Shown: positions 5,553 to 53,875 of the stretch, piece after piece
Numbering within the stretch: position 1 is the stretch's first letter
Layout: every line of letters starts with the position of its first letter
Assembly: GCA_963713615.1 (NCBI GenBank)
Contig: CAVQMM010000001.1
Coordinates: 1,472,001 to 1,536,000, forward strand
Source of the DNA: an uncultured Chlamydiae bacterium
Lineage (GTDB): Bacteria > Chlamydiota > Chlamydiia > Chlamydiales > JAJFMA01
Direction: 5' to 3'
Length of the DNA stretch: 64,000 nt
Notes under the pieces: model-generated
Told to the model about the DNA's origin: nothing
The model's database searches: none
Seen by the model: only the letters and a program-made list of their open reading frames with translations
Program-made: the position numbers and the translations under genes

Positions 5553-7966
5553 ATGAAGGTTAAAAATGGAGTTAAGGAAGACATTGCTGCGGAAATGATA
5601 AATAATCCGTTGTCTCCTGATTTGCTGCAAAAGATAAACGCCTATTGGCGTGCTGCTAATTATCTCTCGGTCGGCCAGATTTATCTCTATCGACAATCCC
5701 CTGTTGAAGGAACCGCTGAAATTATCCCACGTGAAGCCTCTGGTGGTAGGACACTGGGGCACAACGCCGGGCCAGAACTTTATCTATGTACACCTAAACC
5801 GGGTGATCAAGAAGTATGACCTAAATATGTTCTATATCGCCGGTCCCGGTCACGGCGGTCCTGCTCTGGTGGGGAATGTCTACCTCGAAGGCACCTATAC
5901 CGAGATTTATCCAAACATCACCCAGGACGAAGCCGGGATGAAAAAGCTGTTCAAACAATTTTCGTTTCCTGGAGGGATTTCCAGCCATGTTGCACCTACG
6001 ACTCCGGGGTCGATTCACGAAGGGGGTGAGCTGGGCTATTCACTCAGCCACGCATTCGGTGCCGCGTTCGATAATCCCGATTTGATTGTGGCTTGCATCA
6101 TCGGCGACGGTGAAGCAGAAACTGCCTCTTTGGCAACCGCATGGCAGTCCAACAAATTTCTCAATCCAATTAGCGATGGCGCCGTGCTGCCAATCCTGCA
6201 TCTTAATGGGTATAAGATCAGCAATCCAACTGTCCTGGCCCGTATCGAGCCAGAGGAATTGGAGCAATTCTTTCGAGGCTGCGGATGGACACCTTATTTT
6301 GTCGAAGGTGATGATCCGGAAAAAATGCATCAACTCATGGCCAGTACCTTGGAAAAAGCTATTGAAGATATCCGGCAAATCCAAGGCAATGCACGGAGCA
6401 AGAATGACACCACTCGGCGACGATGGCCTATGATCGTCCTCAAATCACCAAAAGGTTGGACGGGACCGAAAGTAGTCGACGGATTGCAAATCGAAGGCAC
6501 CTTCCGGGCACACCAGGTGCCGCTTCTGGTGGATGCCAAGCATCCCGATCATGTCAAGTTACTTGAAGAATGGATGAAAAGCTACAAAGCTGAGGAGTTA
6601 TTTGATGAAAATGGACGTCTGCGAGCGGAATTGGCCGAACTTGCGCCCAAGGGCGAACGACGCATGGGAGCAAATCCCCACGCCAACGGTGGCATTTTGC
6701 TGCGCGACTTGGAAATGCCGGACTTCCATAACCATGCGTTGAATGTCTCTTCGCCTGGTGCCATTGAAGGAGAAGATACGCTCGTATTGGGTAAGTTTCT
6801 GCGTGACGTCGCCAAGCTGAATCAAAACCCACGCAATTTCCGTGTCTTCGGTCCTGATGAGACACTCTCGAATCTCTTGGGTGCTGTTTTTGAAGTCACC
6901 AACCGTCAGTGGGACGCCAGGGAAGTAAAAAATGATGAATTTCTTGCGCCCAACGGAGGCGTCCTGGATTCGATGCTCAGTGAAAACCAGTGCGAGGGTT
7001 GGTTAGAAGGTTATCTGTTAACCGGACGACATGGGCTTATTCAACAGCTATGAGGCGTTCATTCGCATCATCGATTCGATGTTCAGCCAGCATGCCAAGT
7101 GGCTGAAGGTATGCTTGGAACTGCCCTGGCGCCGGAAAATTTCATCGTTAAACTACCTGCTTGCTTCTCACGTTTGGCAGCAAGACCACAACGGCTTTAC
7201 ACACCAAGATCCTGGTTTTCTCGACCACGTCATCAATAAGAAAGCCGATATCGTGCGCGTTTATCTGCCTCCAGACGCCAACTGCCTGTTGTCTGTGTTT
7301 GATCATTGCCTGCGCAGCCGTAATTACGTCAACGTGGTTGTTGCAGGTAAACACCCTCTCCCTCAATGGCTGAACATGGATGCTGCGGTTGTGCATTGCA
7401 CGGAAGGCATTGGCATTTGGCAATGGGCCAGCAACGATCAGGACGCTGAGCCAGATGTTGTGATGGGCTGTTGCGGAGACACTCCTACGCTAGAAACATT
7501 GGCCGCTGTTTCCATCCTTCGCGAGCATCTGCCCGATCTGAAAATTCGCGTCGTTAATGTCGTCGATCTGATGAAGCTTCAGCCTAAAAGCGAGCATCCG
7601 CATGGATTAAGCGAAGCGGATTACGATTCGCTCTTCACAAAAGACAAGCATATCATCTTTAACTTTCATGGATATCCCTGGCTAATCCACCGGCTGACCT
7701 ATCGCAGGACCAACCAAAATCTGCACGTTCGGGGATACAAGGAAGAGGGCACGATCACGACAGCCTTTGACATGCGAGTGCAAAACGATATTGACCGGTT
7801 TCATCTGGTACAAGATGTGGTTGATCGGCTGCCTCATTTAGGATCAAAAGGCGCCTATCTGAAGCAGATGATGCAGGACAAGCTCATTGAGCACAAACAT
7901 TACATTGATAAGCATGGTCAAGACATGCCGGAAATCCGAAACTGGAAATGGGGTGCTCAAAAATGA
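5553..7966 (+). CDS. xfp: phosphoketolase, copy 1 (single-base insertions near 5691 and 7036)
   Basis: [41 protein letters not shown]; colinear with the intact copy at 56802. Confidence 0.93.
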
Positions 7967-9001
7967 ATACCCAAGAGCTTATAAACACTGCTATTGCCCT
8001 GGTCGCCTGTGATAAAGGCTTATTGGCGATGGATGAAAGTAATCCAACTTGCAATAAACGATTTGCCAGATTAGGGATTCCCCAGACCGTGGAAGCTAGG
8101 CGATCATACCGGGAATTGATTGTGACTACACCTGGTTTAGGTGAGTTTATCAGTGGCGCTATCCTTTATGATGAAACTATCCGTCAGTCCACGAAAGATG
8201 GCATTCCTTTTATTAAGGTCATTACTGATGCAGGGATCATTCCCGGCATCAAAGTTGACACGGGTGCAAAGGATATGGCAGGCCATCCCGGAGAAAAAAT
8301 AACTGAAGGTCTTGATGGGTTGCGCGATCGACTTAAGGAATATTACCAAATGGGCGCCCGTTTTGCTAAGTGGCGCGCTGTTATTGCAATAGGCGATGGC
8401 ATCCCTAGCAGAGGATGCATTGAGGCTAATGCGCAGGCGTTGGCACGCTATGCCGCATTATGCCAGGAGGAGGGATTGGTACCGATTGTCGAGCCGGAAG
8501 TGCTCATGGACGGAGAGCATACCTTAGAGCATTGCTTTAAAGTAACGGAAGAAGTTCTACGAACAGTTTTCAATCATCTTTATTCACAAGGAGTGATGCT
8601 AGAAGGTATGCTTTTGAAGCCCAACATGGTGCTTCCGGGATTAACCTGTCCCAAACAAGAAACTGTTGACGAGGTAGCCGATGCTACGGTGAGATGTCTC
8701 TTGCGAACTGTCCCAGCAGCCGTTCCTGGCATTATGTTCTTATCGGGCGGTCAATCTAGTGAACACGCTTCAGCCCGCTTGAATGCGATGAATGCTCAGA
8801 TTCAAGTCAAAACTTCCTTGGGCTTTGTCATTTTCTTTTGCCCGTGCCATCCAACAACCTGCTTTAGAGATTTGGCAAGGCAAGGAGGCAAATGTATTAG
8901 CAGCACAGCAAGCTCTGTATCATCGAGCCAGATGCAACCAGGCTGCACGACGCGGCGAATACAATGCCATGTTGGAAAAAGATATGAGGATGGATTTATG
9001 A
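7963..9001 (+). CDS. fba: fructose-bisphosphate aldolase class I, copy 1 (frameshift near 8795)
   Basis: [36 protein letters not shown]; true C-terminus ([11 protein letters not shown]) in ORF 8792-9001. Confidence 0.92.
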
Positions 9002-9774
9002 GTTCATCAAATCGGAAACCTGTGATCGCAGGTAATTGGAAAATGCACAAGACAATTGAGGAAGCAGTGAGTTTTGTGCAGGAACTGATCCCATTAATCC
9101 AGAATACTCAAGCTAAAATCTATATCGCTGTTCCCTATACAGCACTTCGTTTTGCTGCTGATGCAGCCAAGGACTGCCCTATTGTCATAGGAGCAGAAAA
9201 CATGAGTGATGAAACGGAAGGCGCTTTCACCGGAGAAATTTCAGCAAATATGTTGAAAAATGCAGGAGCACAGTTTGTTATCTTAGGCCATTCTGAGAGG
9301 CGTCACATTTTTAATGAGACTAATGCTTTCATCCACAGCAAAGTCAAAAGAGCTATTTCTGAAAATATACAAATTATCTTTTGCCTCGGTGAAACAGAAC
9401 AAGAGCGCAAAGCTAAAAAAACAGAAGAAGTACTCACTCAGCAATTGGAGGAATCCCTAGGCGATATTGCGGCAGAACAGATGGCCGCGATTATTCTAGC
9501 TTATGAACCTGTATGGGCCATTGGGTCGGGTCATTCTGCTCTTCCTGAAGAAGTTCAAGCGATGCACCATTTTTGTCGTCAATGGGTGAAGCAAAAGTGG
9601 GGAGAAGAAACCGCTCAGAAAGTGATTATTCAGTATGGAGGCTCGGTGCATCCTAATGATGCAAAGGATTTTATGGAACTACCTGATGTGGATGGTGTTC
9701 TGGTAGGGGGCGCTTCCCTCACAGTCGAATCATTTAATAAAATTATTCATTATTCAAGTGTAGGCATTAGATGA
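8998..9774 (+). CDS. tpiA: triosephosphate isomerase
   Basis: AGNWKMHK, GAFTGEIS, LGHSERR, AYEPVWAIG, YGGSV, LVGGAS. Confidence 0.95.
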   Translation: MSSSNRKPVIAGNWKMHKTIEEAVSFVQELIPLIQNTQAKIYIAVPYTALRFAADAAKDCPIVIGAENMSDETEGAFTGEISANMLKNAGAQFVILGHSERRHIFNETNAFIHSKVKRAISENIQIIFCLGETEQERKAKKTEEVLTQQLEESLGDIAAEQMAAIILAYEPVWAIGSGHSALPEEVQAMHHFCRQWVKQKWGEETAQKVIIQYGGSVHPNDAKDFMELPDVDGVLVGGASLTVESFNKIIHYSSVGIR

Positions 9775-11002
9775 AATCCAATGCTGATCAGCTCAAGACT
9801 TCCAAATTGAACCCGGAATCAAAACCCAATGCAAAGGATGATCTAAAAACTATTTCCATGCCGGAATTGGAGAAAAAATTGGGCTCGTCGTCGGAAGGAC
9901 TTACTCAAGCCGAGGCGCAGAAACGATTGATTCAATATGGACCTAACGAGATTGAAGAAAAGAAAACCAATCCTTTTCTTAAATTCCTTAGCTACTTTTG
10001 GGGTCCCATCCCTTGGATGATTGAAATAGCGGTGATTCTGTCAGGCGTGGTCCGGCACTGGCCGGATTTTTTCATCATTCTGCTTTTACTTTTTACCAAT
10101 GCTATCGTCGGATTCTGGGAAGAACGGCAGGCTGGAAATGCCATTGCTGCTCTGAAAGCCAAGCTGGCGATTAAGGCTCGAGTGAAACGCGATGGAAAGT
10201 GGGTTAATCCAGCGGCGCGTGAATTGGTGCCGGGAGATGTCATTCGGTTGCGCATGGGCGATATTGTGCCGGCGGATGCGCGTTTGTTAGAGGGCGATCC
10301 GGTGGAGGTGGATCAGTCTGCGCTGACAGGAGAATCGTTGCCAGTCACCCATAAATCCGGCGAAGCTGTGTTTTCCGGATCGATTATACGCCAGGGAGAA
10401 ATCGGAGCATTAGTATATGGCACTGGTGCGAATACCTATTTCGGCAAGACAGCACAATTAGTACAGGGAGCGCATACCGTCAGTCATTTTCAAAAAGCGG
10501 TTTTGAAGATTGGCGATTATCTGATTATTCTCGCAGTGGTTTTGGTTGCTCTGATTATTACTGTGGCGATCTTCCGTGGAGATCCGATCCTCACGACATT
10601 GCAGTTCGCCTTAGTATTGACTGTAGCGGCGATTCCTGTGGCAATGCCGACAGTCCTATCGGTTACGATGGCAGTCGGTGCGCGCCTACTAGCCAGAAAA
10701 GAAGCAATTGTTAGCAGGTTAGTGGCCATCGAGGAATTAGCAGGAGTCGATGTTCTGTGCGCGGATAAAACCGGTACGCTGACTCAGAACAAGCTGACAC
10801 TTGGCGATCCCTTCAGCGTGGATAATGTTAGCGCGGAACAAGTCATCCTCAATGCCGCGCTGGCGTCCCGCGCAGATAATAACGATATTATTGATCTGGC
10901 CGTTCTGGGCGGTTTGAAAAATAAAGATGCAATGAAAGGCTATCAGGTAATTCATTTCCAGCCATTCGACCCAGTGCATAAACGTACCGAGGCCACAGTC
11001 AA
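9771..11002 (+). pseudogene. plasma-membrane-type (P3A) H+-ATPase, truncated at a hairpin repeat
   Basis: WGPIPWMIE, TGES, IPVAMP, DKTGTLT; homology to the 59188 copy ends at 11002 where GGCTAGGGGTCAG begins. Confidence 0.88.
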
Positions 11003-11130
11003 GGCTAGGGGTCAGGGCTAGGGCTAGGGGTCAGACGTGACTTGTTGACTTGTTCACTTGTTCATCGTACGAGAAACCTTAGTTGAGCAATCCAGCGGAA
11101 TTTCTGACGAACAATCACGTCTGCCCCTAC
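11003..11130. repeat. REP-like hairpin junction motif: stuttered forward copy plus degenerate inverted copy
   Basis: GGCTAGGGGTCAG-GGCTA-GGGCTAGGGGTCAGACGTGACTTGTTGACTTG; inverted TCACGTCTGCCCCTA at about 11115-11129. Confidence 0.8.
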
Positions 11131-11487
11131 TAACATCACACCTTGGAGAGCTCTAGCACTACATCCATCTTGATCTCCAAGTCACCAAAAAATTCACTAA
11201 ACACATCTCAGAACAGATTCTTCAAGAAGTAATCCAGATGACCTCAAGCAATGTGGGGGGCAATTGCCGCGAAACTGTAACGATAAGTAATGGCTTTGAA
11301 TTGTCGCTTCACCGATGCGATAATTTAACGCTAGATTACAGATTGTCATATCGTGATACGACAATCCAGCAAGCACCCTGTAGGCACAATAAGTAGGATT
11401 GATTTAGTAGCCCAAACTGGGATATTTAGGACTGAGGGAAGTGATGAATGAGAAAAAGGTAAAAGAACTTAGATGGATGGCCGCTCT

Positions 11488-11518
11488 GGGGCTAGGGTCA
11501 GATATGACTTATTGACTT
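11488..11518 (+). repeat. REP-like hairpin junction motif
   Basis: GGGGCTAGGGTCAGATATGACTTATTGACTT. Confidence 0.75.
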
Positions 11519-11522
11519 TTGT

Positions 11523-11708
11523 GCACAGCATCTGGCTGACGCCAATGCCTATCGCCGGGATAGACGTAAAGATGCTTTACTCCAACAGAATGGTTACATG
11601 GTTCTACGATTCTTAAGCGAAGATGTGGGTAAGCATCTTGATGATGTTTTGGATTCAATTCTTCGCGCCTTGACACATCAAAGTGCACTTCTAGAAGGCA
11701 AAACTTGA
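11523..11708 (+). pseudogene. 3' fragment of a DUF559/Vsr-like endonuclease domain
   Basis: Manual translation AQHLADANAYRRDRRKDALLQQNGYMVLRFLSEDVGKHLDDVLDSILRAL...*, starting right after the repeat. Confidence 0.7.
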
Positions 11709-11786
11709 ATCTATTTGTGAGATAAAATATGGGAAGGTATTATATGAAAGTTCAATTATTGAAGATACGGTTAAGGATTTATTGGT

Positions 11787-12030
11787 ATGTTTAAGTCTGC
11801 CTTTGCTTATGATGAAGAGGTCATTTTCTACTTTGATCTTTTGGGAAATAAATATGTTGCACAAGGAGGAAGTCTTGCCTGGCGTTTAAATAACCCTGGA
11901 TTGGTCAGAAGTCGTTCTCATTTTGCTAGAAAAAACGGATCTATTGGATCTTATACGGGATTTGCTATTTTTTCTTCTCCTCAACAGGGAAGGAAGGCTC
12001 TAATAGACTTGGTAAGAACGAAAAAATATT
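11787..12030 (+). pseudogene. N-terminal fragment of a protein with a WRxNNPG...FAIF motif, cut by ISL3
   Basis: ORF reads into the ISL3 left IR at 12031. Confidence 0.6.
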
Positions 12031-13414
12031 GGTTCTTGGGAAGAATTGGGGGCGCAGAGCGCAAAGATCAGCTAATACATTAATTTTTTAGGCAAAAAAA
12101 GAGAGGACATAGAAAATCCTATGTTTCGACACAATAGGAGGTTCTCTATGTCCATCTCAAAGGTCTTTTATGCCTTGATCGAAGATAAAAGTGTAGTTTT
12201 TCAAAGCGCAGAATTTCAGTCGGACTATACCATCTTTCACGGTCATCTGCGGCAAAGTGGCAAAAAATGCCCATGTTGTAAGGCTTCCAACGTGCGAATC
12301 AAGGAGACAAAGGAAAGAACTTTTCGAATGCTCAACCTTGGCCAAAAACGGACCTACCTTAAAATGGATTCCCACAAGATCTGGTGCCAGCAATGTAACG
12401 CGATTGCCTGGCTTCAACACCCTTTTACCTCTGGAAAGCTACCGATGACCAAGTCTTTCATCAATTACATCCTTCAGTTAACTGCAATGACAACCCTTCT
12501 TTGCGTAGCACTATTCCTAGGACTGCAATGGAAGACCGTAAAGAACCTAGACAAAGCCAATCTTAGAAAACGTGCAAAGCAATTTTCATTCCGAAAGCTT
12601 CGTTACATTAGCATCGACGAGATAGCAATAAGGAAGGGTCATAAATACATGACAATTTTCACAGACATCGCGACAGGCCAAATTATCCATGCTGTCGCAG
12701 GGAGGGACGAAGAATCACTTAGACCTTTTCTAAAGCTTCTTTCAAAGAAGGCCAAGCGACTTAGGGGCATTGGTATCGACATGAGTGCAGCCTATTCGAG
12801 TTCGATTCAAAAACACCTTCCTCTGGTGCCGATCATTTATGATCGCTTTCATGTTACCAAACTTCTCAATGATACGATCGACAAAATCAGGCGCGCTGAG
12901 TACGCCAAGCACATGAACACGGGTGTAGCGGTAATGAAAGGTCAGCGGTTTCTACTTCTGCGAAATTTTGTGGATCTTGATGATGGACAGAAAAGTAGCC
13001 TTGAAAGACTCCTAGAAGTTAATCACTCATTAGCAGTAGCTCACAGTATGAAAGAACAATTCAGGTTATTTTGGGAGCTTGAATCAAGACAGGAAGGAGC
13101 TAAATTTCTTGGATGGTGGATCATTCAGGCAATTGAGTCTGGGATTGAGCAGTTAGCGAGAACTGCTCGTACACTACTCCATCATTACATGGGGCTCTTA
13201 AGCTACTTCGAACACCGGATAGACAATGGAAAGGCGGAAGGAATCAATAACAAGATAAAGGTTTTGAAGAGACAGGCATATGGCTTTCGAGACCAAGAAT
13301 ACTTTAAGCTAAGGCTATACAACCTCCACAGGAAGGACTATGAATTGGTTGGTTAGACTGGAAGATACTGGGAAAGTGTCTCTGGAGGGCCGCCCCCAAT
13401 TCTTCCCAAGAACC
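12031..13414 (+). mobile_element. ISL3-family insertion sequence
   Basis: Terminal IRs GGTTCTTGGGAAGAATTGGGGGCG (12031) / CGCCCCCAATTCTTCCCAAGAACC (to 13414) enclosing a transposase. Confidence 0.92.
12121..13356 (+). CDS. ISL3-family DDE transposase (intact)
   Basis: CPCC..CQQC zinc finger, ISIDE, IDMS, DRFHV, EGINNKIKVLKRQAYGFR. Confidence 0.95.
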   Translation: MFRHNRRFSMSISKVFYALIEDKSVVFQSAEFQSDYTIFHGHLRQSGKKCPCCKASNVRIKETKERTFRMLNLGQKRTYLKMDSHKIWCQQCNAIAWLQHPFTSGKLPMTKSFINYILQLTAMTTLLCVALFLGLQWKTVKNLDKANLRKRAKQFSFRKLRYISIDEIAIRKGHKYMTIFTDIATGQIIHAVAGRDEESLRPFLKLLSKKAKRLRGIGIDMSAAYSSSIQKHLPLVPIIYDRFHVTKLLNDTIDKIRRAEYAKHMNTGVAVMKGQRFLLLRNFVDLDDGQKSSLERLLEVNHSLAVAHSMKEQFRLFWELESRQEGAKFLGWWIIQAIESGIEQLARTARTLLHHYMGLLSYFEHRIDNGKAEGINNKIKVLKRQAYGFRDQEYFKLRLYNLHRKDYELVG

Positions 13415-13435
13415 ATATTTTCTCGAGGTATTCAC

Positions 13436-14143
13436 ATGTTTTTAAACAAATCTATATGTATTTTTTGCTGTAGTCTTCTTTGTCTGTGCACTAATGGTCT
13501 TTCTACTGAACCCCATGCTAAATATCCAGAAATTGAATTCAAATATGACTGGCGTGGTTATATCATGGATTTTTTTGGTAGGTGGTATTTTGATGCACCA
13601 ATAACGGAACATCTTAAAAATCAGTTGACTAACCAGCTTCCTGAGTTGATCACTGCTTGGGAAATAAATGCTCCAATACTTTTTGGAGAAGTATTTGCCA
13701 CCTTTAATCGAGGAATTGAAGCTGAAACTAGAATTGGAGTTATTAACTTGAGTCATGGAAGCTCTTACGGTAGTCATCGATTTTTAATTTTTGGATTACG
13801 TTGGCTTCTGGATTCAGAGTGGCCCTATTCGGTGAGTAGAGAAGATGCTTTTTCGGCCCTTGTTTTTCATGAATTATTGCATGTTTGGGTCGATGAAAAT
13901 GTCAATAAGGACCTTTCGTCTATGCTAGCGAAATACAGTAATGAAGAGTTTGATGTTCTTGATCATTTACATTTAATGGCTATCCAAAAAATGGTGTATA
14001 CAAAGATAAATCGTCCGGATGTACTCGAGTATATTGGAGAGTCCTATGCATCATATCAAGGTCCTCTCTATCGTCGTGCCTGGGAAATCGTTAATGATAT
14101 TGAAGGACATGAAGCGTTACTTCAAGATATTGTGATTAAATGA
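13436..14143 (+). CDS. exported hypothetical protein with HExxH (zincin-like) motif
   Basis: N-terminal hydrophobic signal; LVFHELLHVW. Confidence 0.6.
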   Translation: MFLNKSICIFCCSLLCLCTNGLSTEPHAKYPEIEFKYDWRGYIMDFFGRWYFDAPITEHLKNQLTNQLPELITAWEINAPILFGEVFATFNRGIEAETRIGVINLSHGSSYGSHRFLIFGLRWLLDSEWPYSVSREDAFSALVFHELLHVWVDENVNKDLSSMLAKYSNEEFDVLDHLHLMAIQKMVYTKINRPDVLEYIGESYASYQGPLYRRAWEIVNDIEGHEALLQDIVIK

Positions 14144-14173
14144 TGACCCAAGCTCAGATACGACAAATGGAAT

Positions 14174-15208
14174 CTATTCCCGTACAATTCGATCCGTTAG
14201 GGATGGAATTAAATACTGTATGTCTGCCTGTATGAGAAAATCTTCGTTGCCTAGATATGATGGCAGCCCTAAATCAACTGAAATTATTTTTCCATTTGGA
14301 TTATTATTTTTATACCAACCTAAAAATCCCCTATCGTCATAACTTAACCCAATGCAAATAATATAGTCTATATTACTTAATTGAATCCCCCCTGCTTCCC
14401 TTAGCTCTTTTGCATTAATACGATAGGGCAAAATTCCACTATATTCATGAAGGCAATCTAAGTTTTCAGTCACTATCTTCGTGTTTTTGAATTTTGCTAA
14501 TTTCGTCAGAGCTTTATGTGCTTGTGTTAGGGGGCTAAAGAAACAAGCGTTGTGAAATGTGGAAATTTTTTTTGAAAATTCTTCCGGATTTCGAAAGGCA
14601 TTTTCCAATGAAATGGCAAATTCTTCTCCCTCTTTTAAGCCAAGCAAATCATTTAGTTGAGTCATTGAGGGCACGCCAGAGGCCACAGAAATTCCTGCTC
14701 CTGTATAAAAAAGAATATTTTTATCGGCAATGATTGATAAGATGCCGTCTTCAGTGATCTTTTGAGGTGTCGACTGCTCAAATATACGCCTTTTATCCAC
14801 CAAATAAGATGCGTTATCTGAACCGTGCTCCTTATTCTGTTTTCGAGGTAAATTTATAACTGATGGTTCGTTATTCTTCCATTCATAATAAAAAATATAG
14901 TACTCTTTTCCATTACTATCAACAAATTTACTTTTATCAATAAATAACTTTTTGACTGATTCATCATAGCAGATAGGAATGTCGGCAAATAAAACTTCAA
15001 AATAGACTTCATCCTTTTTACTAATAAAGTGAAAGAAGGCATTTTCTCCGAACTGCCAACACATATCAAGAGATTTAGAGTCAAGTTGCTCGTGGATCTC
15101 ATTAGTGGAAATAACTTCGGGATTAGAGAAAAAGTCTGCTTCTCTTCCATAAGCATTGCACAGGTTAACTGAAACTATCGCGGATAATAGAATTTTGTTT
15201 AAGTACAT
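14174..15208 (-). CDS. Sir2/sirtuin-family protein with a signal-peptide-like N-terminus
   Basis: YTGAGISVASGVP, TQAHKAL, VTENLDCLH, IGLS. Confidence 0.75.
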   Translation of the reverse strand: MYLNKILLSAIVSVNLCNAYGREADFFSNPEVISTNEIHEQLDSKSLDMCWQFGENAFFHFISKKDEVYFEVLFADIPICYDESVKKLFIDKSKFVDSNGKEYYIFYYEWKNNEPSVINLPRKQNKEHGSDNASYLVDKRRIFEQSTPQKITEDGILSIIADKNILFYTGAGISVASGVPSMTQLNDLLGLKEGEEFAISLENAFRNPEEFSKKISTFHNACFFSPLTQAHKALTKLAKFKNTKIVTENLDCLHEYSGILPYRINAKELREAGGIQLSNIDYIICIGLSYDDRGFLGWYKNNNPNGKIISVDLGLPSYLGNEDFLIQADIQYLIPSLTDRIVRE

Positions 15209-15349
15209 ATGCGTATACTCATTATTTTTGGGAGACAAGCTTAAAAAAAATAGCAGATCTGTCACCGCCTGTCAAATGGAAGGACTGTCAATTTTTCCGG
15301 AATTGTTTTTTGACAAAACGCACTCAAATCGAGCACATGCTCTATATGC

Positions 15350-15440
15350 GGTCAGACGTGACTTATTGACTTCTTGTCTGAAATTTTGGATCTCTCGTGC
15401 GCTAAACATCTATAAGTCACGTCTGACCCCTAGCACTAGC
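15350..15440. repeat. inverted pair of REP-like hairpin junction motifs
   Basis: GGTCAGACGTGACTTATTGACTT ... AAGTCACGTCTGACCCCTAGCACTAGC. Confidence 0.8.
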
Positions 15441-16610
15441 ATGAATGAGAGCGAAGATTGCGAAAGTACTCAGCCGCGCTTTCAGATTCTTGAACTGCAA
15501 TTTTTGCTCTGGCAAACATTTCTCTTTCAAATTTCTCTGTCAATCTTGGCCAGTCGATAGGCTTTGATGAGGAGGCTAATAGAATCGTTAGTAATCTGGC
15601 ATCTTCAAGCACATTATTTCCACCTAGCCCTCGTTGTGTGGGCATGGCATGGGCTGAATCTCCCACGAGAGTAACTCTTCCTGTTGGAACCATGGGAAAT
15701 TGTGGAGAGTCAGAAAACTGGTAGTGCGTATGAGCCAAGGCGCCATGATCGCTTCTGCCGGAGTATCGTACACGAGCTTTTTCAAATTCTCATGCCAAGG
15801 TTCATTTTTCATCAACTGCTTACAGTGGTCCAATATTCGCGTGCGACATTGCAATCCTTCATCAAACTGATACCAAGGGGCACTTCAGTCTTCTATTTCT
15901 TCTGAAAATGCCCAAAAAACCGTAGGACTTCTATCGGCCCGTTCTGAAAAGCATACTCCCATGTAATGTGAATTAGGCCCTAGAAAATGAACCAATCCTG
16001 TTTTGTTTAGTGGAAGAAGCGTGTTCCATTCGGGTGTTCGCTCAATCTGTCCTCCTAGGGTGGCGCGAGTACCCTCAATCACATTTGGAATCGATCCAAG
16101 GCCATGTTGGTATACTGATGGTAAGAGTTCTCTTACAGTCGATGCTCCTCCATCGCACCCAACAAGGAGATCCCCAGTGGCATACGAGCCATCTTCAAAA
16201 TGAGCAGTCACTTGGTCGCCATTGTCTTCGAACATGACAAGACACTTGTTCCATTCAATATTGATCCCCTCCTGCAAAAGGCTTCTCAGTTCTGAGCGAA
16301 GGAACGGGACAGCAGCATCTTGCCCTGCTGGAACACTGAAAAAAGGTTCCATTTTTTCATTCGCACAGGTAAAGCCATCACCCACATCAGTAACCTTAGC
16401 CATGGATACCCGGTTCATTTTTTCAGGCGTCAATAGTGCAGCTAGTGCGCTCATTCCCAACGAACGAATTGAAATCCGATATCCTTGAGGTCTGCTTGTA
16501 GGACTTTCATCTCTTTCAAAAACTGTGACATGGAATCCAGCCTTGGCAAGTCCCTGCGCCAAAGCCAATCCACCAAGACCTGCTCCAATTATTAATATTT
16601 TATTTCCCAT
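15436..16610 (-). CDS. FAD-dependent monooxygenase (two frameshifts)
   Basis: IIGAGLGGLALA, LVGCDG, VGDSAHAMP..G.GGN across three ORFs. Confidence 0.85.
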
Positions 16611-17131
16611 TTCTTAGCATTCTCACTACTTAACCATTTAATTTCGGATTCAAGATGAGCAATTCCATATCTCAAAGCTTTGAGGCGAATCATTTTAAGG
16701 GGCGAATCGTTTATACCCTCCAGCCTCTCCTCGATTTGTTTGTATTCTTCGTGTATCTTCTCAACTTTTTCTAATCTTTCCTGAAATAGCCGAATCATCT
16801 CATTTCGATCTGTTACGAAAAAGAGCTTGAGAAGAAACTCATTGCGTGGGGTTTCCTCCCCTGTCGGACTTTCGAACCAAGCCTTAAATTCCATCCGTCC
16901 CATTTCTGTAATAGAAAAGACCTCTTTCTTTTTCTTTCCCACATAGACGATCTCAGAAAGCACCTTTCCTTCCTTTGCCAAAACTTTCAACATCGGATAA
17001 ATTGTCGAATCGGATTCCCTCCAGAAATATACTGTCGATCTTCCCATAAGAGACTTGATCTCATATCCGGTGGTGGGTCCCTCAAGGAGAACCCCCAAAA
17101 TAGCGTATCTTGTTTTATTGACTAATCTCAT
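16592..17131 (-). CDS. PadR-family transcriptional regulator (AphA-like)
   Basis: AILGVL..GP.TGYEI, IYPML..L..EG, FLLKLFF. Confidence 0.9.
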   Translation of the reverse strand: MRLVNKTRYAILGVLLEGPTTGYEIKSLMGRSTVYFWRESDSTIYPMLKVLAKEGKVLSEIVYVGKKKKEVFSITEMGRMEFKAWFESPTGEETPRNEFLLKLFFVTDRNEMIRLFQERLEKVEKIHEEYKQIEERLEGINDSPLKMIRLKALRYGIAHLESEIKWLSSENAKKWEIKY

Positions 17132-17134
17132 AAA

Positions 17135-17182
17135 AATACCCAGTTACTGGGTATTATGGCATGGCGGGTGATTTTCAGGCAA
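17135..17182 (-). promoter_or_regulatory. probable PadR operator overlapping a sigma70-type promoter
   Basis: Perfect palindrome AATACCCAGT-T-ACTGGGTATT (17135-17155) next to the start codon; CATAAT and TTGCCT upstream on the minus strand. Confidence 0.6.
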
Positions 17183-17188
17183 TGCAAA

Positions 17189-17210
17189 GGCTAGGGTCAG
17201 ACGTGGGCTG
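17189..17210 (+). repeat. REP-like hairpin junction motif
   Basis: GGCTAGGGTCAGACGTGGGCTG. Confidence 0.7.
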
Positions 17211-17222
17211 AAACGAATCGCC

Positions 17223-17562
17223 CTACACTTTTTGATTTAATTCCAATAACCTTGGCTGAAAAGTCATGTTATAAATGTTGATTTGCTCAGGAAACCTATG
17301 TTGTTGGATCCATTCTTTAAAAAATTTATCGGCAACCTGTTTATAGAATTCAGAGATCTGGTAGTCTTTATGGCCTTTGCAGAGATCCGGATTTCCCAGG
17401 CAGAAGGAACCTCCACCCTTAATTTCTTTCCATGTCTTCTTTCCTTTGCCCTTAGACTCTTGTTCCTCCATTACCAGTCGAATACCGCAATCCTGTTTGG
17501 TTTCTTCTTCTTGCAATCCTTTCTCTAAACCAATCTCTTGATAGTGGACACAATATTTACGT
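17223..17562 (-). pseudogene. orphan copy of the last C-terminal domain of the protease at 17870-19540
   Basis: Closely similar ...QISEFYKQVADKFFKEWIQQH.FP...NMTFQP.LLEL.QKV*; 5' end cut by the repeat at 17563. Confidence 0.8.
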
Positions 17563-17666
17563 GGGCTGGGGGTCAGGCTCTATGACACTTGGGCTGGGGG
17601 TCATGGGGGTCAGGCCTGACACTATGACACTTGGGCTGGGGGTCAGGCCTGACACTATGACACTTG
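17563..17666 (+). repeat. tandem stuttered REP-like motif
   Basis: About 3 copies of GGGCTGGGGGTCAGGCCTGACACTATGACACTTG. Confidence 0.85.
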
Positions 17667-17869
17667 TGAGGGTAGTGATCTACAAAGACGGCAAAATAGT
17701 GACCGTGCCGCCCAAATTCAAATACGTACGAGTCCCCATTGACTCCCCTCCTAAAAAATCTGCTTCCCTCAAAAAATCACGTGCATAATCCCAGCGTATG
17801 GTCTGATCTTATATCTCGTGATAAGCAGGTTATCTATGACTTGCCCGCTCTAGCTTCCTGTTAGCTGCG

Positions 17870-19540
17870 CTACACTTTTTGATCTAATTCCAATAGCTTT
17901 GGCTGAAAAGTCATGTTATAGATGCGCATTTGTACAGGAAACTTATGTTGTTGGATCCATTCTTTGAAAAATTTATCCGCAACTTGTTTATAGAATTCAG
18001 AGATCTGGTAGTCCTTATGGCTTTTGCAGATATCCGGATTTCCCAGCCTGAAGGAACCTGCTCCACCCTTAATCTCCTTCCATGTCCTCCGCTTGCCCTT
18101 AACCTCTTGCTCCTCCATTACCAGCTGAATGCCGCGATCCTGTTTGGAGCTTCTCTCTTCTTCTAAACCAATGTCTTTGTAGTGGATACGATATTTACGT
18201 GTACCGTCATCGTCATTATATGCTTTAAGATTTTCATCATAGTAACGCGTACCCGGTAGTTGAGGCGTATCCCGTGCGTTTTCTGGTACAGGCGTGTTTT
18301 GATCTAGGCGGATAGGATTGAAATCTAAACCGAATGCTTTAATTTCTTGGGGAAATGATTGATGTTCAATTTGTTCCTTTAAAAACCGATCGGTTACTTG
18401 GATGTAAAATTCTGTTGCCTGTCCCTTGTTGTTATAGCGTCCGGAAGGATGAGGATCTCCAAGGTAGAAGCAACCTGAGCCTTCAATTTTTTTCCACATT
18501 TCTCCATTGCAAGAACGTTCTTTAATATCTAAACGTTCTTCCATCTCTATTCGAATACCACGCTCATTTTGATGATATTCGCTTTCTTTTCCTTCTTGTG
18601 TTGTTCGAAACTTTCCTTTCATGAAAAGTTCTGTGTAGCGGACACGGTACTTACGCTTTCCATCATCACCATTAAAGCCTTCGAGATTTTCATCATAGAA
18701 ACGATAGTCTGACACCGGGGGCTTTCCACCCTCTTGTTCAATCAGTTCGTGGGATGAAAACTGTCGTAATGGTTGCGGAGAGCCTTTTGGTGGGGTTGCG
18801 GGTGTTGCAGATTGTCGCTTAAAAATAGAAGAATGTTTCATCAGGTTTAAAGAAACCACCAATTTGTCGATTACTTTTTTACCGTCGGCGATGAGGTGAC
18901 TGACTTCTTTTACCTTTGGTTTGCCTAAGTGCATCAAGACTACTTTGTTATGTTTTGTGAAGTAGCATCCTCCTGAGCTTCCTGGAGAGGTATCGCTAAA
19001 CACCATTTGAAATGACGGGTTGGAACTGTTCTCTTTTCCAGCTTTGCTTAAGGAAAATACGGGTTGCCCATCTCTTTGATGAACCAACATGAGTTCTTCA
19101 TCTGGGCGAGCATCTCGAAGTGGCGGAATCGTGACCCAATGGTCAGCGTGATGGCCATCTTGAGGCTTGAGTTGAGCAATGCAATAATCCGTACTTTTTT
19201 CGTAATTCATGAATTCCGCTATTTCAAAACTAAGAGGGGCGTTGCCATCCACGTGAAAGACTACCGACAAATCTCGGGGATGCAAATGCTTCTTCGCAAG
19301 ATGTAAAGGGATGAGCAAACGATCAGGACCGAGCAAAATACCCGATCCTAAAGGTGCGCCGCCGGAAGTGTTAATCTGAGCTCGACAGCGATTGGCATAT
19401 TCAATTGTTTCTTTCCAATGTGGCCATTGGTGAAGAGCCTCATGGTAATCCAGCATCGATGATTTTTCGGAGATTGAAGACTCTTGAGAGACCGTCCAGC
19501 CAGTCAAAGAAGTGGGTGGAAGAGTATTGAGGATTACCAT
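17870..19540 (-). CDS. trypsin-like serine protease with two tandem C-terminal domains of unknown function
   Basis: GSGILLG..LLIPLH, DYCIAQL, DTSPGSSGG triad; repeated YDENL..DDG.RKYR...RGI...EFY.QV.D.F.KE. Confidence 0.75.
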   Translation of the reverse strand: MVILNTLPPTSLTGWTVSQESSISEKSSMLDYHEALHQWPHWKETIEYANRCRAQINTSGGAPLGSGILLGPDRLLIPLHLAKKHLHPRDLSVVFHVDGNAPLSFEIAEFMNYEKSTDYCIAQLKPQDGHHADHWVTIPPLRDARPDEELMLVHQRDGQPVFSLSKAGKENSSNPSFQMVFSDTSPGSSGGCYFTKHNKVVLMHLGKPKVKEVSHLIADGKKVIDKLVVSLNLMKHSSIFKRQSATPATPPKGSPQPLRQFSSHELIEQEGGKPPVSDYRFYDENLEGFNGDDGKRKYRVRYTELFMKGKFRTTQEGKESEYHQNERGIRIEMEERLDIKERSCNGEMWKKIEGSGCFYLGDPHPSGRYNNKGQATEFYIQVTDRFLKEQIEHQSFPQEIKAFGLDFNPIRLDQNTPVPENARDTPQLPGTRYYDENLKAYNDDDGTRKYRIHYKDIGLEEERSSKQDRGIQLVMEEQEVKGKRRTWKEIKGGAGSFRLGNPDICKSHKDYQISEFYKQVADKFFKEWIQQHKFPVQMRIYNMTFQPKLLELDQKV

Positions 19541-19719
19541 GAGATTGTCCTCGAGACATTGTGAATCATTATCGATAAAGCTAGGATATCTGAGCTTTGA
19601 TCACATCAAAGCTGGTAAATCGACCAAGCTGTAAAATGCACTGTATCGGTAAGCAGCCTATTTCTCAAGAACAGCGTTCAAGCACCAGCACTTAGGCATC
19701 AATTTCCAAGAGTAGTCAA

Positions 19720-19801
19720 GGCTGGGGGTCGGCTGGGGGTCAGGCCTGATACTAGGGGCTGGGGGTCAGGCTGGGGGTCAGGCCTGATACTATGACACTT
19801 G
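19720..19801 (+). repeat. tandem stuttered REP-like motif
   Basis: GGCTGGGGGTC(AGGCCTGATACTA) repeats ending in TGACACTTG. Confidence 0.85.
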
Positions 19802-19892
19802 TGTATATAAAATAAGGGGCTGGCGTAGCACAAATAAATTTATGGAAACGGCGCTTGATCTAACCTTCGATGTTATGGAAATGCCAAGCCCA

Positions 19893-20021
19893 CTAGCTAT
19901 TGGCCATGGCCAAAATGAACTCAGCCTTAAGGCCATGCACCTCGCTTCGTAATGCACTAGATTCTTGCATTCTGCTTTCTAACCGTGCTGCGGCCTTGCT
20001 CATACCACTGGCTTCTCGGTA
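19893..20021 (-). pseudogene. possible C-terminal HTH fragment of a Y1/RAYT-like HUH transposase
   Basis: Manual translation YREASGMSKAAARLESRMQESSALRSEVHGLKAEF...*; lies between two repeat clusters. Confidence 0.4.
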
Positions 20022-20024
20022 CGT

Positions 20025-20185
20025 CAAGTGTCATAGTGTCAGGCCTGACCCCACCCTCGTCACGTCACGTCAAGTGTCATAGTGTCAGGCCTGACCCCAC
20101 CATAGTGTCAGGCCTGACCCCACCATGACCCCACCATAAGTGTCATAGTGTCAGGCCTGACCCCACCACAGGCCTGACCCCACCA
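20025..20185 (-). repeat. tandem stuttered REP-like motif, inverted orientation
   Basis: About 5 copies of CAAGTGTCATAGTGTCAGGCCTGACCCCACC, full or partial. Confidence 0.85.
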
Positions 20186-20231
20186 TTGAAATTTCTTGGA
20201 CTCCCTATCGTCCTCAAGGTGGCTTTCCTGA

Positions 20232-20251
20232 GTGCTAGGGGTCAGACGTAG
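20232..20251 (+). repeat. REP-like motif pairing with an inverted degenerate copy at 21419-21437
   Basis: TGCTAGGGGTCAGACGTAG versus CTACATCTGACCACTAGCA. Confidence 0.65.
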
Positions 20252-20528
20252 GGTGTTGATTCAAGTGAGGCTTCCAACTCTTGTCGATAGCGGCTTCGGT
20301 TGGGCCGTAGAGTCGGAGGACGACGAAGAACCCTTTGCCAGGCGGCACGGTAGCGAGCCAGTTATAGCCGATGAGGATGAAAATACTCCAATAACAAAAT
20401 GCTGGAATAAAATGGCATAAAGCAGCAGAATTATTGTTCTTTTAAACCCTCAATTTCATTGGGTCCAAAGAGAAGCTTTTTTACACAAGAGAAAGGCATG
20501 ATAGATTCTCAATTTGAAACAAAATAAA

Positions 20529-21386
20529 ATGTTTTCTTCAAGTTATTGTCTCACCAACGAACAAATCATTCATTTTCAGCATAAAGGTTTTCTCTTATTG
20601 CCTGATTTTGTTTCAGAACAACTTTGCGAGCAACTTAAAACACGATCTTTACATTTAGTGGAAAAGTTTCAAATACCGGATATTTCAAAAGAAATTGCTG
20701 AGCAAAAAGAAATATTTTCATGGGAAAATTATTACTATAAAAACAATACCAAGGAGTGTTATTTTTTTGAGAAAGAAGCCATGCTGCCTGATGGTTCCTT
20801 AGATAGAGACAAAACGGATGCTATTCAAAAAATTAGCTACGCTTTACATTCTCTTGATCCTATCTTTAATGCATTCTCCTATTCATCTAAAATCGGAAGT
20901 TTGGTCGCTGATTTGGGCCTAAAGAAACCCGCTATCCTTCAATCAATGTATTTGTTTAAACAGCCCAAAATTGGCAGTCCTGTTTTTTGTCATCAGGATA
21001 GCTCTTTTTTATACACCGAACCCGATACATTGCTTGGACTTTGGCTTGCCATAGACGATGCTGTAATTGAGAATGGATGTCTATGGGTTATACCGTCTGC
21101 TCACAGAGAAGCTTTAAAATTTCGTACACTGTTTGATAAGAATGGGAAACAAAACTACACGATCTTAGATGAAAGACCTTGGTCCATGGAAAATATGATT
21201 CCTCTTGAAGTGAAGAAAGGCTCACTAGTTATCTTACATGGAAGAGCGCCTCATATGAGTAAGGCTAACCTTTCGAATAAATCACGCCACGCCTATGCTA
21301 TGCATCTTATGTGCACAGAAAGTTTTTATCCAGAAGATAACTGGCTACAGCCAAAACCGTGTTATGACGCAACTTTTACGCACTAG
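20529..21386 (+). CDS. phytanoyl-CoA dioxygenase family protein (PHYHD1-like)
   Basis: QSMYLFKQPKIG, HQD, WLAIDDA..ENGCL, H.S..N.S..SR. Confidence 0.9.
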   Translation: MFSSSYCLTNEQIIHFQHKGFLLLPDFVSEQLCEQLKTRSLHLVEKFQIPDISKEIAEQKEIFSWENYYYKNNTKECYFFEKEAMLPDGSLDRDKTDAIQKISYALHSLDPIFNAFSYSSKIGSLVADLGLKKPAILQSMYLFKQPKIGSPVFCHQDSSFLYTEPDTLLGLWLAIDDAVIENGCLWVIPSAHREALKFRTLFDKNGKQNYTILDERPWSMENMIPLEVKKGSLVILHGRAPHMSKANLSNKSRHAYAMHLMCTESFYPEDNWLQPKPCYDATFTH

Positions 21387-21493
21387 ACTCGTAAAAACTG
21401 GATTAAAATTTTGCAAACCTACATCTGACCACTAGCATTTCTGGATTTGAAGGTTTACAGAGTAAGATTATCTTACTAAGGCGGGGTTCCTCA

Positions 21494-29772: not shown

Positions 29773-30110
29773 GAACCTCAACCGACTACGTCGCCAACGT
29801 TTGTTTTGCACGTCTCCATAATTGGGCCTTGTTCACCTTTACGGTCAGAATTTCGGTCGGACGAAAAAGGTCGGATGTCGTGGTTTGTGACGAGGGCATA
29901 GCGCCAGCTATGTCCGAGGAGCAAAACGCGACAGACGATCCTTTTGCAGTCGACCGAAAACTGACCGCAAAGGTGAATAAGGCCCATAATTGCAATGGAT
30001 TGTTCGCAGTCATGGAATGTTCATGGAATGACTGCGCCACATAGGAGGCCTTGTTACTTTCGGATATTGGCGACGCAGTCGGTTGGGGCTCCAAAGCGCT
30101 TCGCGCCGAG
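29773..30110. repeat. palindromic repeat family B, interrupted by the 160-bp MITE
   Basis: Shares CATGGAATGACTGCGCCACATAGGAGGCCTTGTTACTTTCGGATATTGGCGACGCAGTCGG with the 47250 and 56067 copies. Confidence 0.75.
29825..29984 (+). mobile_element. 160-bp palindromic MITE, copy A
   Basis: GGCCTTGTTCACCTTT...AAAGGTGAATAAGGCC; TSD CATAATTG on both sides. Confidence 0.92.
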
Positions 30111-30485
30111 TTTTGGGTTTGACATAGAAAACTTGACAGACTTTATGTCAATGTTTTATTTTACTTTTAGCGCATGGGAGAAGCCCATTTTGGCTTTGTA
30201 AAATTTCAATTTTTCTATTCTCTGTCTATTTTACCTCGCCCTAGGGGTGATTGGACGCATTCAGAATGTGTGCAACACGAAGTCGCAGAGGAATTGTCTC
30301 TTTCATGAGACAACTCCTACCGCGGGAATTAATCAGGAGCCTGAATAAAGCAACGGATCTGCAAAAAAACAAGATTTTTTAAAGAAAGTGATTAACCTGA
30401 GTTTTTGATTTTTTCGATTTTAGCTTGAGTGAAAGCTCTTGTGATGACAAAATCACAAAATTCATCTCGTTACATGGGGTAAATT

Positions 30486-31049
30486 ATGTTTAAACAAGGT
30501 ATTGGTATAGAACAGCTCAATTTCATAAAGAAAAGTTACGTGAAACTTTTCCTATTGTTATGCGTTTGTTTTATCTATCAGCCGCACACTCTCTATAGTG
30601 GTCAGACCCAAGCATTAATATATTATCTGAACATCTCAGACTTTGCAGATAGTTTTATTGAAATACCAACATCTAATGTGTCAATTGGAAGTTCTACAAT
30701 AAGTTCAACATATCTTGCCGGAAGAGCAGCGGTTTATGATAGTAATAATGTAAAGGTTGGAACATGTTCTGCTTCGTTTTTATGCATGCAAAATGCGGAT
30801 GGAATCTATACAGATATATCAAATTATTTTTCTGTTGATAGTGGATTAATAGTGTCATGGTTTACTCCTACAACATTGATAAATTTAGAATTAGATACTA
30901 TTATAAATTCCATGGTAACTGAATGCATGGTGCTGGCATCAACACAGGTTGGTGTTAATCCTTTTTATGGACAGACCTTTGACTTAATTGTTTCATCGGA
31001 TAGCCAAAAAATCTATTTTGCATTTACAAGAACAGGAACGATTTTCTGA
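30486..31049 (+). CDS. hypothetical exported protein
   Basis: 187-aa AT-rich ORF with a hydrophobic N-terminal segment. Confidence 0.6.
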   Translation: MFKQGIGIEQLNFIKKSYVKLFLLLCVCFIYQPHTLYSGQTQALIYYLNISDFADSFIEIPTSNVSIGSSTISSTYLAGRAAVYDSNNVKVGTCSASFLCMQNADGIYTDISNYFSVDSGLIVSWFTPTTLINLELDTIINSMVTECMVLASTQVGVNPFYGQTFDLIVSSDSQKIYFAFTRTGTIF

Positions 31050-31081
31050 ATTTGGACGTTAGTTGATTCAAATTCAAAGAT

Positions 31082-32163
31082 GCCTCTTGGGAAGGATTGG
31101 GGACGCTTTGGAATCACAATCGCAACTCGGGGCCTTATTCACCTTTGCGGTCAGTTTTCGGTCGACTGCAAAAGGATCGTCTGTCGCGTTTTGCTCCTCG
31201 GACATAGCTGGCGCTATGCCCTCGTCACAAACCACGACATCCGACCTTTTTCGTCCGACCGAAATTCTGACCGTAAAGGTGAACAAGGCCCAACTCGGCG
31301 CGAAGCGCTTTGGGCTATGGACGAAATGGACTAATTGAGGTAATTGCAGAAGTCCGATTCTCCGAAATCAATTTCCTGAAAATCGGATGCCGGTGAAGAG
31401 AGAGTCATTCCCTTCCCAGGCCCGCCCGAAGGGTCGATATTGCAACAGGCCATGGCATCGCCACATAGGCCTCAACCTAACAGGTCTTTTGAGCTTATAT
31501 CTCAATGACTTAGGACTTCACAATCGTATCTCGGCGCGCAGCGCTTTGGAGTGCGGTCGCTTGCGACCGCTTTTCGTTCCTTGGGACGGCAATGCTAAAC
31601 GGCATTGTATGGATTCGTCGAAGGCTGCATGTACTAACTATTTTACCCTTAGGGAATTATAGTGATGCCGTTGCACACGACCGTCGCAAGGAACCCAAAG
31701 CGGTCGCAAGCGACCGCACTCCAAAGCGCTGCGCGCCGAGATACGATTGTTAGGCTTAGGTTGAGGCCTATGTGGCATCGCCATGGTATATGCCAAAACG
31801 GTTTTAGCAGCCTGTAGGGCTGCCATAAAGCGCATGCATAAATGGTGTTTGTAAACTGGCGTCTTGTAGCAGTCCTTCAGACTGCGAAATCCCTTCCTGG
31901 CATATACCATGGCGATGCCATGGCCTGTTGCAATATCGACCCTTCGGGCCTGGGAAGGGAATGGATTCTCTCTCTTTGCCGGCATTCGAGTTTCGGAAAT
32001 TGACTTCGGGAAACCGGACTTCTTCAATTACCTCAATTAGTCCAGAGAATCAACCTTGTTACTTTCGGATATTGGCGGCGCAGTCGGCTGAGGCTCTATA
32101 GCGCAGCACATCTATTCGATGGTTTGTGGAAGCAAAAAGCGCCCCCAGTTCTTCACAAGAACC
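31082..32163. mobile_element. nested composite MITE with ISL3-type ends
   Basis: Ends GCCTCTTGGGAAGGATTGGGG / CCCCCAGTTCTTCACAAGAACC; several concentric inverted repeats. Confidence 0.8.
31131..31290 (-). mobile_element. 160-bp palindromic MITE, copy B
   Basis: TSD CAACTCGG on both sides. Confidence 0.92.
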
Positions 32164-33127: not shown

Positions 33128-33150
33128 GAAGACAATAGCCGCAGCAGCTC

Positions 33151-33215
33151 GGGGTCAGGCCTGGGCTGAAACTGAGCGTCCAAAGGCATGTCAAGTATCA
33201 CAGAGTCAGGCCCGA
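33151..33215. repeat. degenerate pair of REP-like junction motifs
   Basis: GGGGTCAGGCCTGGGCTG ... CAAGTATCACAGAGTCAGGCCCGA. Confidence 0.55.
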
Positions 33216-39475: not shown

Positions 39476-39685
39476 CTTATCTGAAAGACAAAGCTGTTGA
39501 CGAATCTGTTAATCGTATAACTTTGCCTGATGCATTAAAGTAAAAATATATTTCTACAGCAAACGTTTTTTTATTTTTCATCTAATTAAAAATTTAAACA
39601 ATAATTATACTTATTTAAATTGCATTATTACTGTTGCCAGGTGTAAATTCGCAGCGCCGATTAACGTTCAAAACAGGTAATAACA

Positions 39686-53857: not shown

Positions 53858-53875
53858 GGTTGCGATTCCTATGTG

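Follow-up and report, generated by a model that had tools for sequence, protein, structure and literature searches.

TIRtrons, in which the gene of a Y1 HUH transposase (TIRYT) lies between terminal inverted repeats (TIRs), were described by Di Nocera et al. in 2013 (PMC3733652), whose text gives the repeat consensus as GGGGWSAS (GGGG[AT][CG]A[CG]) and mentions both dimers and clusters of TIRs. In the text of Quentin et al. 2018 (PMC6006769) the TIRYTs make up subclass 2.1.2 of the TnpA-Y1 proteins, with a helix-turn-helix (HTH) tail, and subclass 2.1 as a whole is the second largest among Y1 HUH proteins, being found in 14.9% of strains. They probably also correspond to group 1 of the REP-associated tyrosine transposases (RAYTs; Bertels et al. 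2017, PMC5581495). We found no work from 2019 onwards on the TIRYT/TIRtron family, nor, among the papers listed, any related one on GGGGTCAG together with a transposase, the latter judged by title. Here we analyzed a stretch of 64,000 nucleotides from an uncultured Chlamydiae bacterium (hereafter the window; C1:1472001-1536000 in a 3.97-Mb genome, 99% complete and in three contigs), for which an earlier note had reported a repeated motif sitting on gene breaks. Two TIRtrons, each having a Y1-HUH transposase gene between GGGGTCAG inverted repeats, carry this motif as their terminal repeat, and its copies lie on real host-gene breaks, likely because the enzyme cuts a few bases outside the repeat and rejoins the ends singly. 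The family is already described, and this genome is an informative member of it that carries mechanistic footprints.

The motif, GGGGTCAGNNNTGAC, has 12 matches in the window versus 0.17 expected by chance, and the repetition reported in the earlier note is thus real. Scanning the whole genome with consensus 20-mers as queries gave 78 units with at least 17 of 20 positions matching, as compared to 1–2 in shuffled sequences, a contrast that is somewhat inflated because the 20-mers were derived from the observed copies. Grouping gave 79 units in 66 arrays, of which 40 pair as 20 inverted dimers of about 80–140 bp, and 23 of the 66 arrays are concentrated in 80 kb around the window. There are two variants, A (GGGGTCAGGCCTGACACTATGACACTT) and B (GGGGTCAGACGTGACTTATTGACTT), and within the window they occur as TIR dimers of 100–130 bp, as solo ends and in one internally deleted mini-TIRtron.

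The genome holds six Y1_Tnp matches, including two long and intact genes that are each boxed by inverted motif copies of one variant, which bears out the proposed link between the motif and a Y1 HUH enzyme. TIRYT-A (C1:1466737-1465781, 318 amino acids) is found 5 kb to the left of the window between A repeats at C1:1465664 and C1:1466835, and TIRYT-B (C1:1581920-1580931) 45 kb outside the window between B repeats at C1:1580892 and C1:1581977. Both score over the cut-off for PF01797 (Y1_Tnp) with intact NHIH and Y-x-H-L-N-P motifs, where H60-I-H62 and Y119 are invariant among 14 sequences, and both have a Bac_DnaA_C-like HTH tail, with E values of 1.6e-5 (under cut-off) and 1.7e-9 (over cut-off). 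A structural model of TIRYT-A (pLDDT 85) had TnpA-REP (4ER8) as its top match in the PDB, at an E value of 5e-7, and its tail matched DnaA domain IV. The NCBIfam profile REP_Tyr_transpos gave 70.8 and 76.4 bits, below its cut-off of 80, and NF033573, the test for IS200/IS605, gave 15 bits versus a cut-off of 55. We place the enzymes in subclass 2.1.2 from domain content and motif only. Among named relatives, those closest to the transposase are mostly chlamydial. When 112 related loci were examined and 45 dropped for having partial genes or short flanks, a TIR pair surrounded the gene in 49 of the 67 kept; none of 15 candidate stretches in viral contigs encoded a TIRYT relative. At L008 (1432-1490 and 2448-2506) and L056 the TIRYT genes are boxed by palindromic TIR doublets rather than by single TIRs, and in several chlamydial TIRYTs (L034, L035, L036, L038, L049 and others) the alignment indicates that a C-terminal QMSECQA is apparently encoded by the right TIR.

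This architecture, with a Y1-HUH gene of about 320 codons, a Bac_DnaA_C-like tail, GGGGWSAS inverted repeats and TIR copies that are moderately abundant and occur singly, as dimers and in clusters, does not differ from that given in the text of the two TIRtron papers (PMC3733652, PMC6006769). Outer joints at a fixed distance, head stutters, gene truncation, self-insertion and an insertion sequence (IS) that targets the TIRs, all set out below, are not described in that text; tandem TIRs may be shown in supplements or figures. The likeness to REPtrons and TnpA-REP with their REP, BIME and REPIN sequences (Ton-Hoang 2012, PMC3333891; Corneloup 2021, PMC8266576; Bertels and Rainey 2011, PMC3337134) includes inverted doublets able to form long hairpins, tandem amplification and possible capture of flanking DNA, and of the solved folds 4ER8 is the closest; two-sided cleavage is known for their enzyme. 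Unlike REPtrons, however, the TIRtrons have an extra HTH domain, a transposase below the NCBIfam RAYT cut-off, far fewer copies, many of which cut coding sequences, and neither a GTAG foot nor a conserved small hairpin.

The last point bears on the description of the motif in the earlier note as a REP-like hairpin, which does not hold, as the motif is the GGGGWSAS repeat of TIRtrons. What is conserved among 88 distinct ends is GGGGTCAGGC, after which comes a repeat of 8-bp period (identity 0.63, versus 0.40 between sequences), and this consensus shows no GTAG or GTGG tetranucleotide at a conserved hairpin foot. The GTCA-N4-TGAC hairpin that had been noted is present, but it is weak (−2.1 kcal/mol in type B, and absent from the best structure of type A) and its stem is perfect in only 16 of the 88 ends, not being conserved in the TIRtron family. 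This speaks against the small hairpin as the recognition feature, and we infer that the TIR repeat is read by the HTH domain and that the hairpin is incidental.

With IS200/IS605 elements such as IS608 and ISDra2 the TIRtrons share the Y1 HUH fold and the lack of target-site duplications (TSDs). Those elements have short transposases, subterminal hairpins, a left end unlike the right one and excision that is precise and two-ended, whereas TIRtrons end in inverted repeats and no clean insertion was found here. Rolling-circle elements of the IS91/ISCR type also use HUH chemistry and, having one fixed and one variable end, move neighboring DNA, with Y2 or related enzymes and one ori and one ter end; the TIRtron differs in having a Y1 enzyme and two inverted ends.

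We found homology breaks 2–50 nt before 24 of the 66 arrays, the controls giving 30 of 400 for random sites and 29 of 375 for nearby ones. Within a break zone of 2–16 nt, 17 of 18 informative heads had such a break as compared to 26/128 and 16/181 in the controls (9–20%), and the anticipated genome-wide enrichment at breakpoints is thereby confirmed. These 17 head breaks, 13 of which were placed 4–7 nt outside the motif, represent about 12 independent events.

Several of these breaks are found in the window. The 5′ half of an H+-ATPase gene (9771..11004, plus strand; Pfam E1-E2_ATPase) loses its homology to an 88% identical paralogue (C1:842577) at 11004, which is the motif head, in agreement with the cut described in the earlier note. 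There follows a B-type TIR dimer (11004..11133), non-autonomous and MITE/REPIN-like, that has a stuttered left head and folds as a long hairpin, and its right head (at about 11133) in turn cuts a tyrosine integrase gene of which a 3′ remnant is left (11134..11241, plus strand), matching the end of an integrase in genome G001 (L030) and a 359-amino-acid integrase at C1:1435976-1437055. As its heads cut the H+-ATPase and the integrase, the dimer joins two unrelated broken genes. Further on, the first codons of a Gp49/DUF891 (RelE/HigB-like) gene (11444..11487, plus strand) are cut by the TIR head at 11488, whereas paralogues at C1:1437184 and about C1:1471230 run on without any TIR. The breaks at about 11133 and at 11488 were absent from the earlier note. 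The unit of integrase, decayed gene and Gp49/HTH_37 exists in three copies (C1:1435976-1437600, C1:1470864-1472000 and window 11134-11487), two of them being cut by the same B dimer joint. The B-type TIR at 11488..11520 (plus strand) and the 92 bp flanking it on the outside (11397-11520) have 100% identity with TIRtron B at its right end and outer flank (C1:1580793-1580916). The inner side of this TIR is joined to a DUF559 3′ fragment (11521..11753, plus strand; Pfam DUF559), which shares 94% identity with the end of a longer gene from genome G109 (locus L153). The motif thus does open this fragment, as had been stated; the far junction of the fragment, at 11753, is without a TIR.

At 15343..15442 there is a B-type TIR dimer with a duplicated right head, and the stop codon of a neighboring FAD monooxygenase gene (15436-15438) comes from that duplicated head, just as the earlier note had it, with the joint falling on the native TGA stop of the homologues. 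The cut at 17563, made by an A-type head, is also real, but it does not hit the protease-like domain to which it had been ascribed: it falls within an 84% tandem copy (17220..17563, minus strand) of the C-terminal part (amino acids 448–556) of a 556-amino-acid orphan. The orphan itself (17870-19540) has an N-terminal part that by eye is protease-like and an internally repeated C-terminal part, and gave no Pfam or NCBIfam match. The A-type head belongs to a stutter array (17563..17668, plus strand) whose inner side joins non-element DNA at 17668, a joint that is bridged with 0 differences by a 151-nt public record (X2-14), which may stem from the source sample. That joint had been read as the start of a gene 3′ fragment; the joint stands, while the fragment (17660-17785) is unverified as a gene piece because neither a single word-seeded search for longer proteins nor its own genome yielded a homologue, a weak negative for only 42 amino acids. 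Finally, the mini-TIRtron A at 19720..20181 retains both TIR arrays and the last approximately 50 codons of the TIRYT-A gene with its downstream DNA, as seen from 251 bp at 99% identity to TIRtron A and a tblastn match to residues 266–318.

A second type of footprint is the stutter, in which a repeated unit starts a few bases outside the GGGG and extends a variable distance into the TIR. Stutters were seen at 26 of 98 ends, in 20 of 49 loci (one a duplicate) that are TIRtrons of other bacteria, versus 64 of 5444 control sites. Simple tandem duplications account for 34 of the 66 stutter joints, and in 27 of these 34 the outer point lies 5–8 nt before GGGTC, while the inner point varies over 6–40 nt; at least two bases are shared in 15 of the 34, versus about 18% by chance. 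TG is frequent in the joints of this genome, but several joints lack it, so strict TG target specificity was not adopted; joints of other genomes show other overlaps of 0–4 nt. The same kind of event at greater length joined a head inside the TIRYT-A gene and gave an 830-bp duplicate at 100% identity, and L047 presents the mirror case, again with the gene of the element itself as the place where a head is joined. The six close A arrays are all found no more than 26 kb from TIRYT-A, which suggests that TIRYT action is mostly local.

That tandem repeats trouble assemblers, and that the ends of Tn3-family elements likewise begin with GGGG, could be taken to mean that the stutters and junctions are assembly artefacts or that the motif is a Tn3 inverted repeat. 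We consider this very improbable, since the contig, of 3.9 Mb, is nearly complete, the public record (possibly from the source sample) bridges one joint and the stutters recur in 20 of 49 unrelated assemblies; a Tn3 transposase (PF01526) was not found in the genome and the dimers have no 5-bp TSD.

The linkage between motif and gene, the fixed position of the outer joints, the stutter arrays, the gene truncations and the lack of TSDs at dimers are direct observations. We propose as the likely explanation that TIRYT binds the repeat, nicks single-stranded DNA about 4–7 bases outside it and rejoins that one end to a second nick in the vicinity. The DnaA-like C-terminal HTH domain would bind GGGGTCAGGC and the 8-bp-periodic repeat, and the nick would proceed via a covalent 5′-phosphotyrosine intermediate. 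If the head were joined to a site downstream, inside or after the TIR, fill-in synthesis would produce head stutters in tandem and lead the element to duplicate itself in part; if it were joined upstream or elsewhere, flanking genes would be deleted or fused. Dimers, mini-elements and fusions of TIRs to fragments would arise where a cut on the inner side is joined to a distant site. As the activity is apparently mostly local, the island beside TIRYT-A would become filled with ends and broken genes, to which the TIR-inserting DDE-type IS and ISL3 contribute further junctions. For TnpA-REP, the text of PMC3333891 and PMC8266576 reports cleavage on both sides of its site and recombination in vitro, with amplification by nicking, extension, a second nick and rejoining proposed as a model, and by analogy the stutter and self-duplication footprints of the TIRtrons match that model.

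The main alternative is that dimers and TIRtrons insert cleanly with two ends, and that their flanks were broken later by other IS elements and by repeat recombination in a decaying island. The region does carry ISL3, IS21-like and IS66-like elements in addition to the TIR-targeting DDE IS, the junction at 11753 has no TIR, and 17 of the 20 dimers are beyond testing. Homologous recombination between TIRs would, however, swap flanks and not create joints inside unrelated genes or stutters of variable length, and in two genomes a head cuts the gene of the element itself. Among the testable cases of the 20 dimers we found no dimer at an uninterrupted empty site and no clean two-ended insertion, the three dimers having partners on both sides showing gaps of at least 63 nt. 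Nor was there any TSD around the 20 dimers, where the best repeats were of at most 4 nt, as in the controls, so that the lack of TSDs reported before holds for the dimers. Synteny with genomes of the same genus or family (G001–G004) comprised only short and diverged matches and therefore gave no empty sites. On this evidence we regard two-ended insertion as unlikely. Several points nevertheless weigh against one-ended rejoining by TIRYT. Any inserted element breaks homology at its own end, and the enrichment alone is therefore no proof of deletion, the stronger argument being the lack of any dimer at an uninterrupted empty site; the one-ended claim rests on few cases, namely 3 of the 20 dimers and the gene-joining dimer in the window, as for most of the remaining 17 a partner is missing on one side or both, and flanks could have been removed by later IS activity or host recombination. 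Of the stutter joints, 32 of 66 are not simple duplications, and a TIR pair went undetected at 18 of the 67 related genes. No circles or alternative joints were seen in the public data, which consist of four DNA runs with shares of 0.05–0.08, available as contigs only and with a depth of only about 2 on near-identical pieces; no holder of RNA data was listed. In addition, the sequence is compatible with a cut on either strand, and the literature we found that names TIRYTs reports no assay of them, so that the chemistry is borrowed from RAYTs.

Some of the motif copies in the earlier note turned out to be composite. At 17189, 20232 and 33151 the TIR ends after GGTCAGACG or GGTCAGGCC and is followed by the end of a second IS, of DDE type, so that the features are a B-type TIR head with an IS end at 17186..17225 (plus strand), another at 20231..20265 (plus strand) and, at 33147..33200 (plus strand), a TIR head with an IS end and then a degenerate reversed A-type tail. 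The copy at 21419 is probably of the same kind: the degenerate head and probable IS end at 21400..21437 (minus strand) are weak, were judged by eye and resemble C1:1604982, but are under the scan threshold. The other weak copies, which like that at 21419 failed the scan, appear by eye to be a degenerate reversed tail (33192), a short stub (34495) and a match too weak to count (49741). At C1:1451042-1454528, C1:1604991-1605133 and L036, such ends enclose an insertion with a 9-bp duplication of a TIR segment, and the statement that no TSDs occur thus does not extend to the second IS. In the genome, 12 of 15 exact end motifs of this IS sit in TIRs. Searches of Pfam, NCBIfam and PDB sequences gave no family for its transposase; a model built on an alignment of relatives folds like the Hermes and ISCth4 DDE transposases. 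Relatives were found at 28 loci, 15 of which had definable ends, with two located in TIRtron repeats and 13 at unrelated sites, so that TIR targeting may be restricted to one sublineage. The IS is closest to REP-targeting insertion sequences (PMC1525189) and prokaryotic Mutator-like transposases (text of PMC3942029), with insertion into a repeat, 9-bp duplications and a DDE fold with a helical insert as the common features, but differs from them in having a TIRtron TIR as its target and a transposase outside any Pfam or NCBIfam family. The second IS was observed in TIRtron repeats of four genomes (window 17204, 20249 and 33162; C1:1458117-1459900; L036:3893-5812; L165; L166).

An integron comprises IntI, attI and attC, with uniform orientation and one gene plus one site per cassette. 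The earlier note had proposed an integron-like array; in a host-useful system of this kind the TIRs would be cassette sites and TIRYT would capture, order and excise genes. As in integrons, short repeats here lie among accessory genes and one joint falls exactly at a native TGA stop codon; several joints share TG, two segments of TIR plus passenger are duplicated (466 bp at 75% and 1313 bp at 82% identity), and the TIR arrays are enriched within 3 kb of RHS core ends (14/66 versus 2.7% expected), although that enrichment may only mark damage-tolerant places. TIR dimers and solo ends are indeed found within RHS/YD-repeat arrays at C1:2366000-2422000 and C1:3077000-3086000, where several RHS fragments start or stop at a head. 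Of the two gene units that the earlier note described as bracketed, an intact PhyH-family gene (20514..21386, plus strand), with homologues in three other genomes that are only 37–46% identical, lies between two inward-reading sites of TIR head and IS end. The other, the unit of PadR and FAD monooxygenase (15440..17155, minus strand), is located on the outer side of two TIR heads, and a frameshift at 15720 and a premature stop at 15885 make its monooxygenase a pseudogene. This unit has about 80% DNA identity to seven chlamydial loci, six of them including PadR, and none of the seven has TIRs at its ends or presents a cassette with its site in a different context, in a comparison made across chlamydial families rather than among close strains; it is at most a putative mobile cassette. 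That such identity extends across several chlamydial families in differing contexts does suggest horizontal exchange. Furthermore, no second genome copy was found of the intact window genes tested, orientations are mixed, no cassettes of one gene and one site are seen, the cargo consists mostly of fragments or pseudogenes, the 11753 and ISL3 junctions are free of TIRs, and no TIR copy at a distance from the gene is seen at 16 of 21 long related loci. The integron integrase profile TIGR02249 gave 0 of 11 matches over cut-off in the genome. A host-useful cassette system is accordingly improbable, and what is found is a scrambled, decaying island and not an ordered cassette array.

Other mobile and repeated DNA in the window includes the ISL3 itself (12028..13414, plus strand), an unrelated mobile element that is present in two more identical copies elsewhere in the genome and has no TIR at its junctions. 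Paralogous clusters of phosphoketolase, aldolase-fusion and H+-ATPase genes lie at window positions 5650-11021, 41911-44580 and 56775-61605 and at C1:842577-843873, and the phosphoketolase copy at 5650-7966 is split across two frames. Other abundant repeats, comprising inverted elements of about 160–175 bp and palindromic units of about 470 bp, are located at 29824-31750, 39315-39486, 45385-46005 and 52748-54612, and at C1:1971243, 177 nt of one such repeat is replaced by a B dimer.

A broader and rather doubtful reading would have TIRtrons be HTH-guided, integrase-free gene shufflers that hosts keep. The HUH enzyme would nick at a fixed distance outside the repeat and join the end to TG-rich sites including stop codons, hosts would retain the elements because genes in accessory islands and RHS arrays become fused, trimmed and duplicated, and a DDE IS lineage would have become specialized on the TIRtron repeats. 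In favor of a wider shuffling role are the joint at a stop codon, the two old duplications of TIR plus passenger and the enrichment near RHS core ends. With regards to what can be gained from this genome, it supplies two intact pairs of enzyme and repeat together with about a dozen before-and-after junctions. These predict a cut 4–7 nt outside GGTCAG, binding to GGGGTCAGGC and the 8-bp repeat rather than to a hairpin, and one-ended joins, which makes the mechanism of TIRYT directly testable. If the proposed mechanism is true, deletions, duplications and gene fusions would have a local source in this widespread element.

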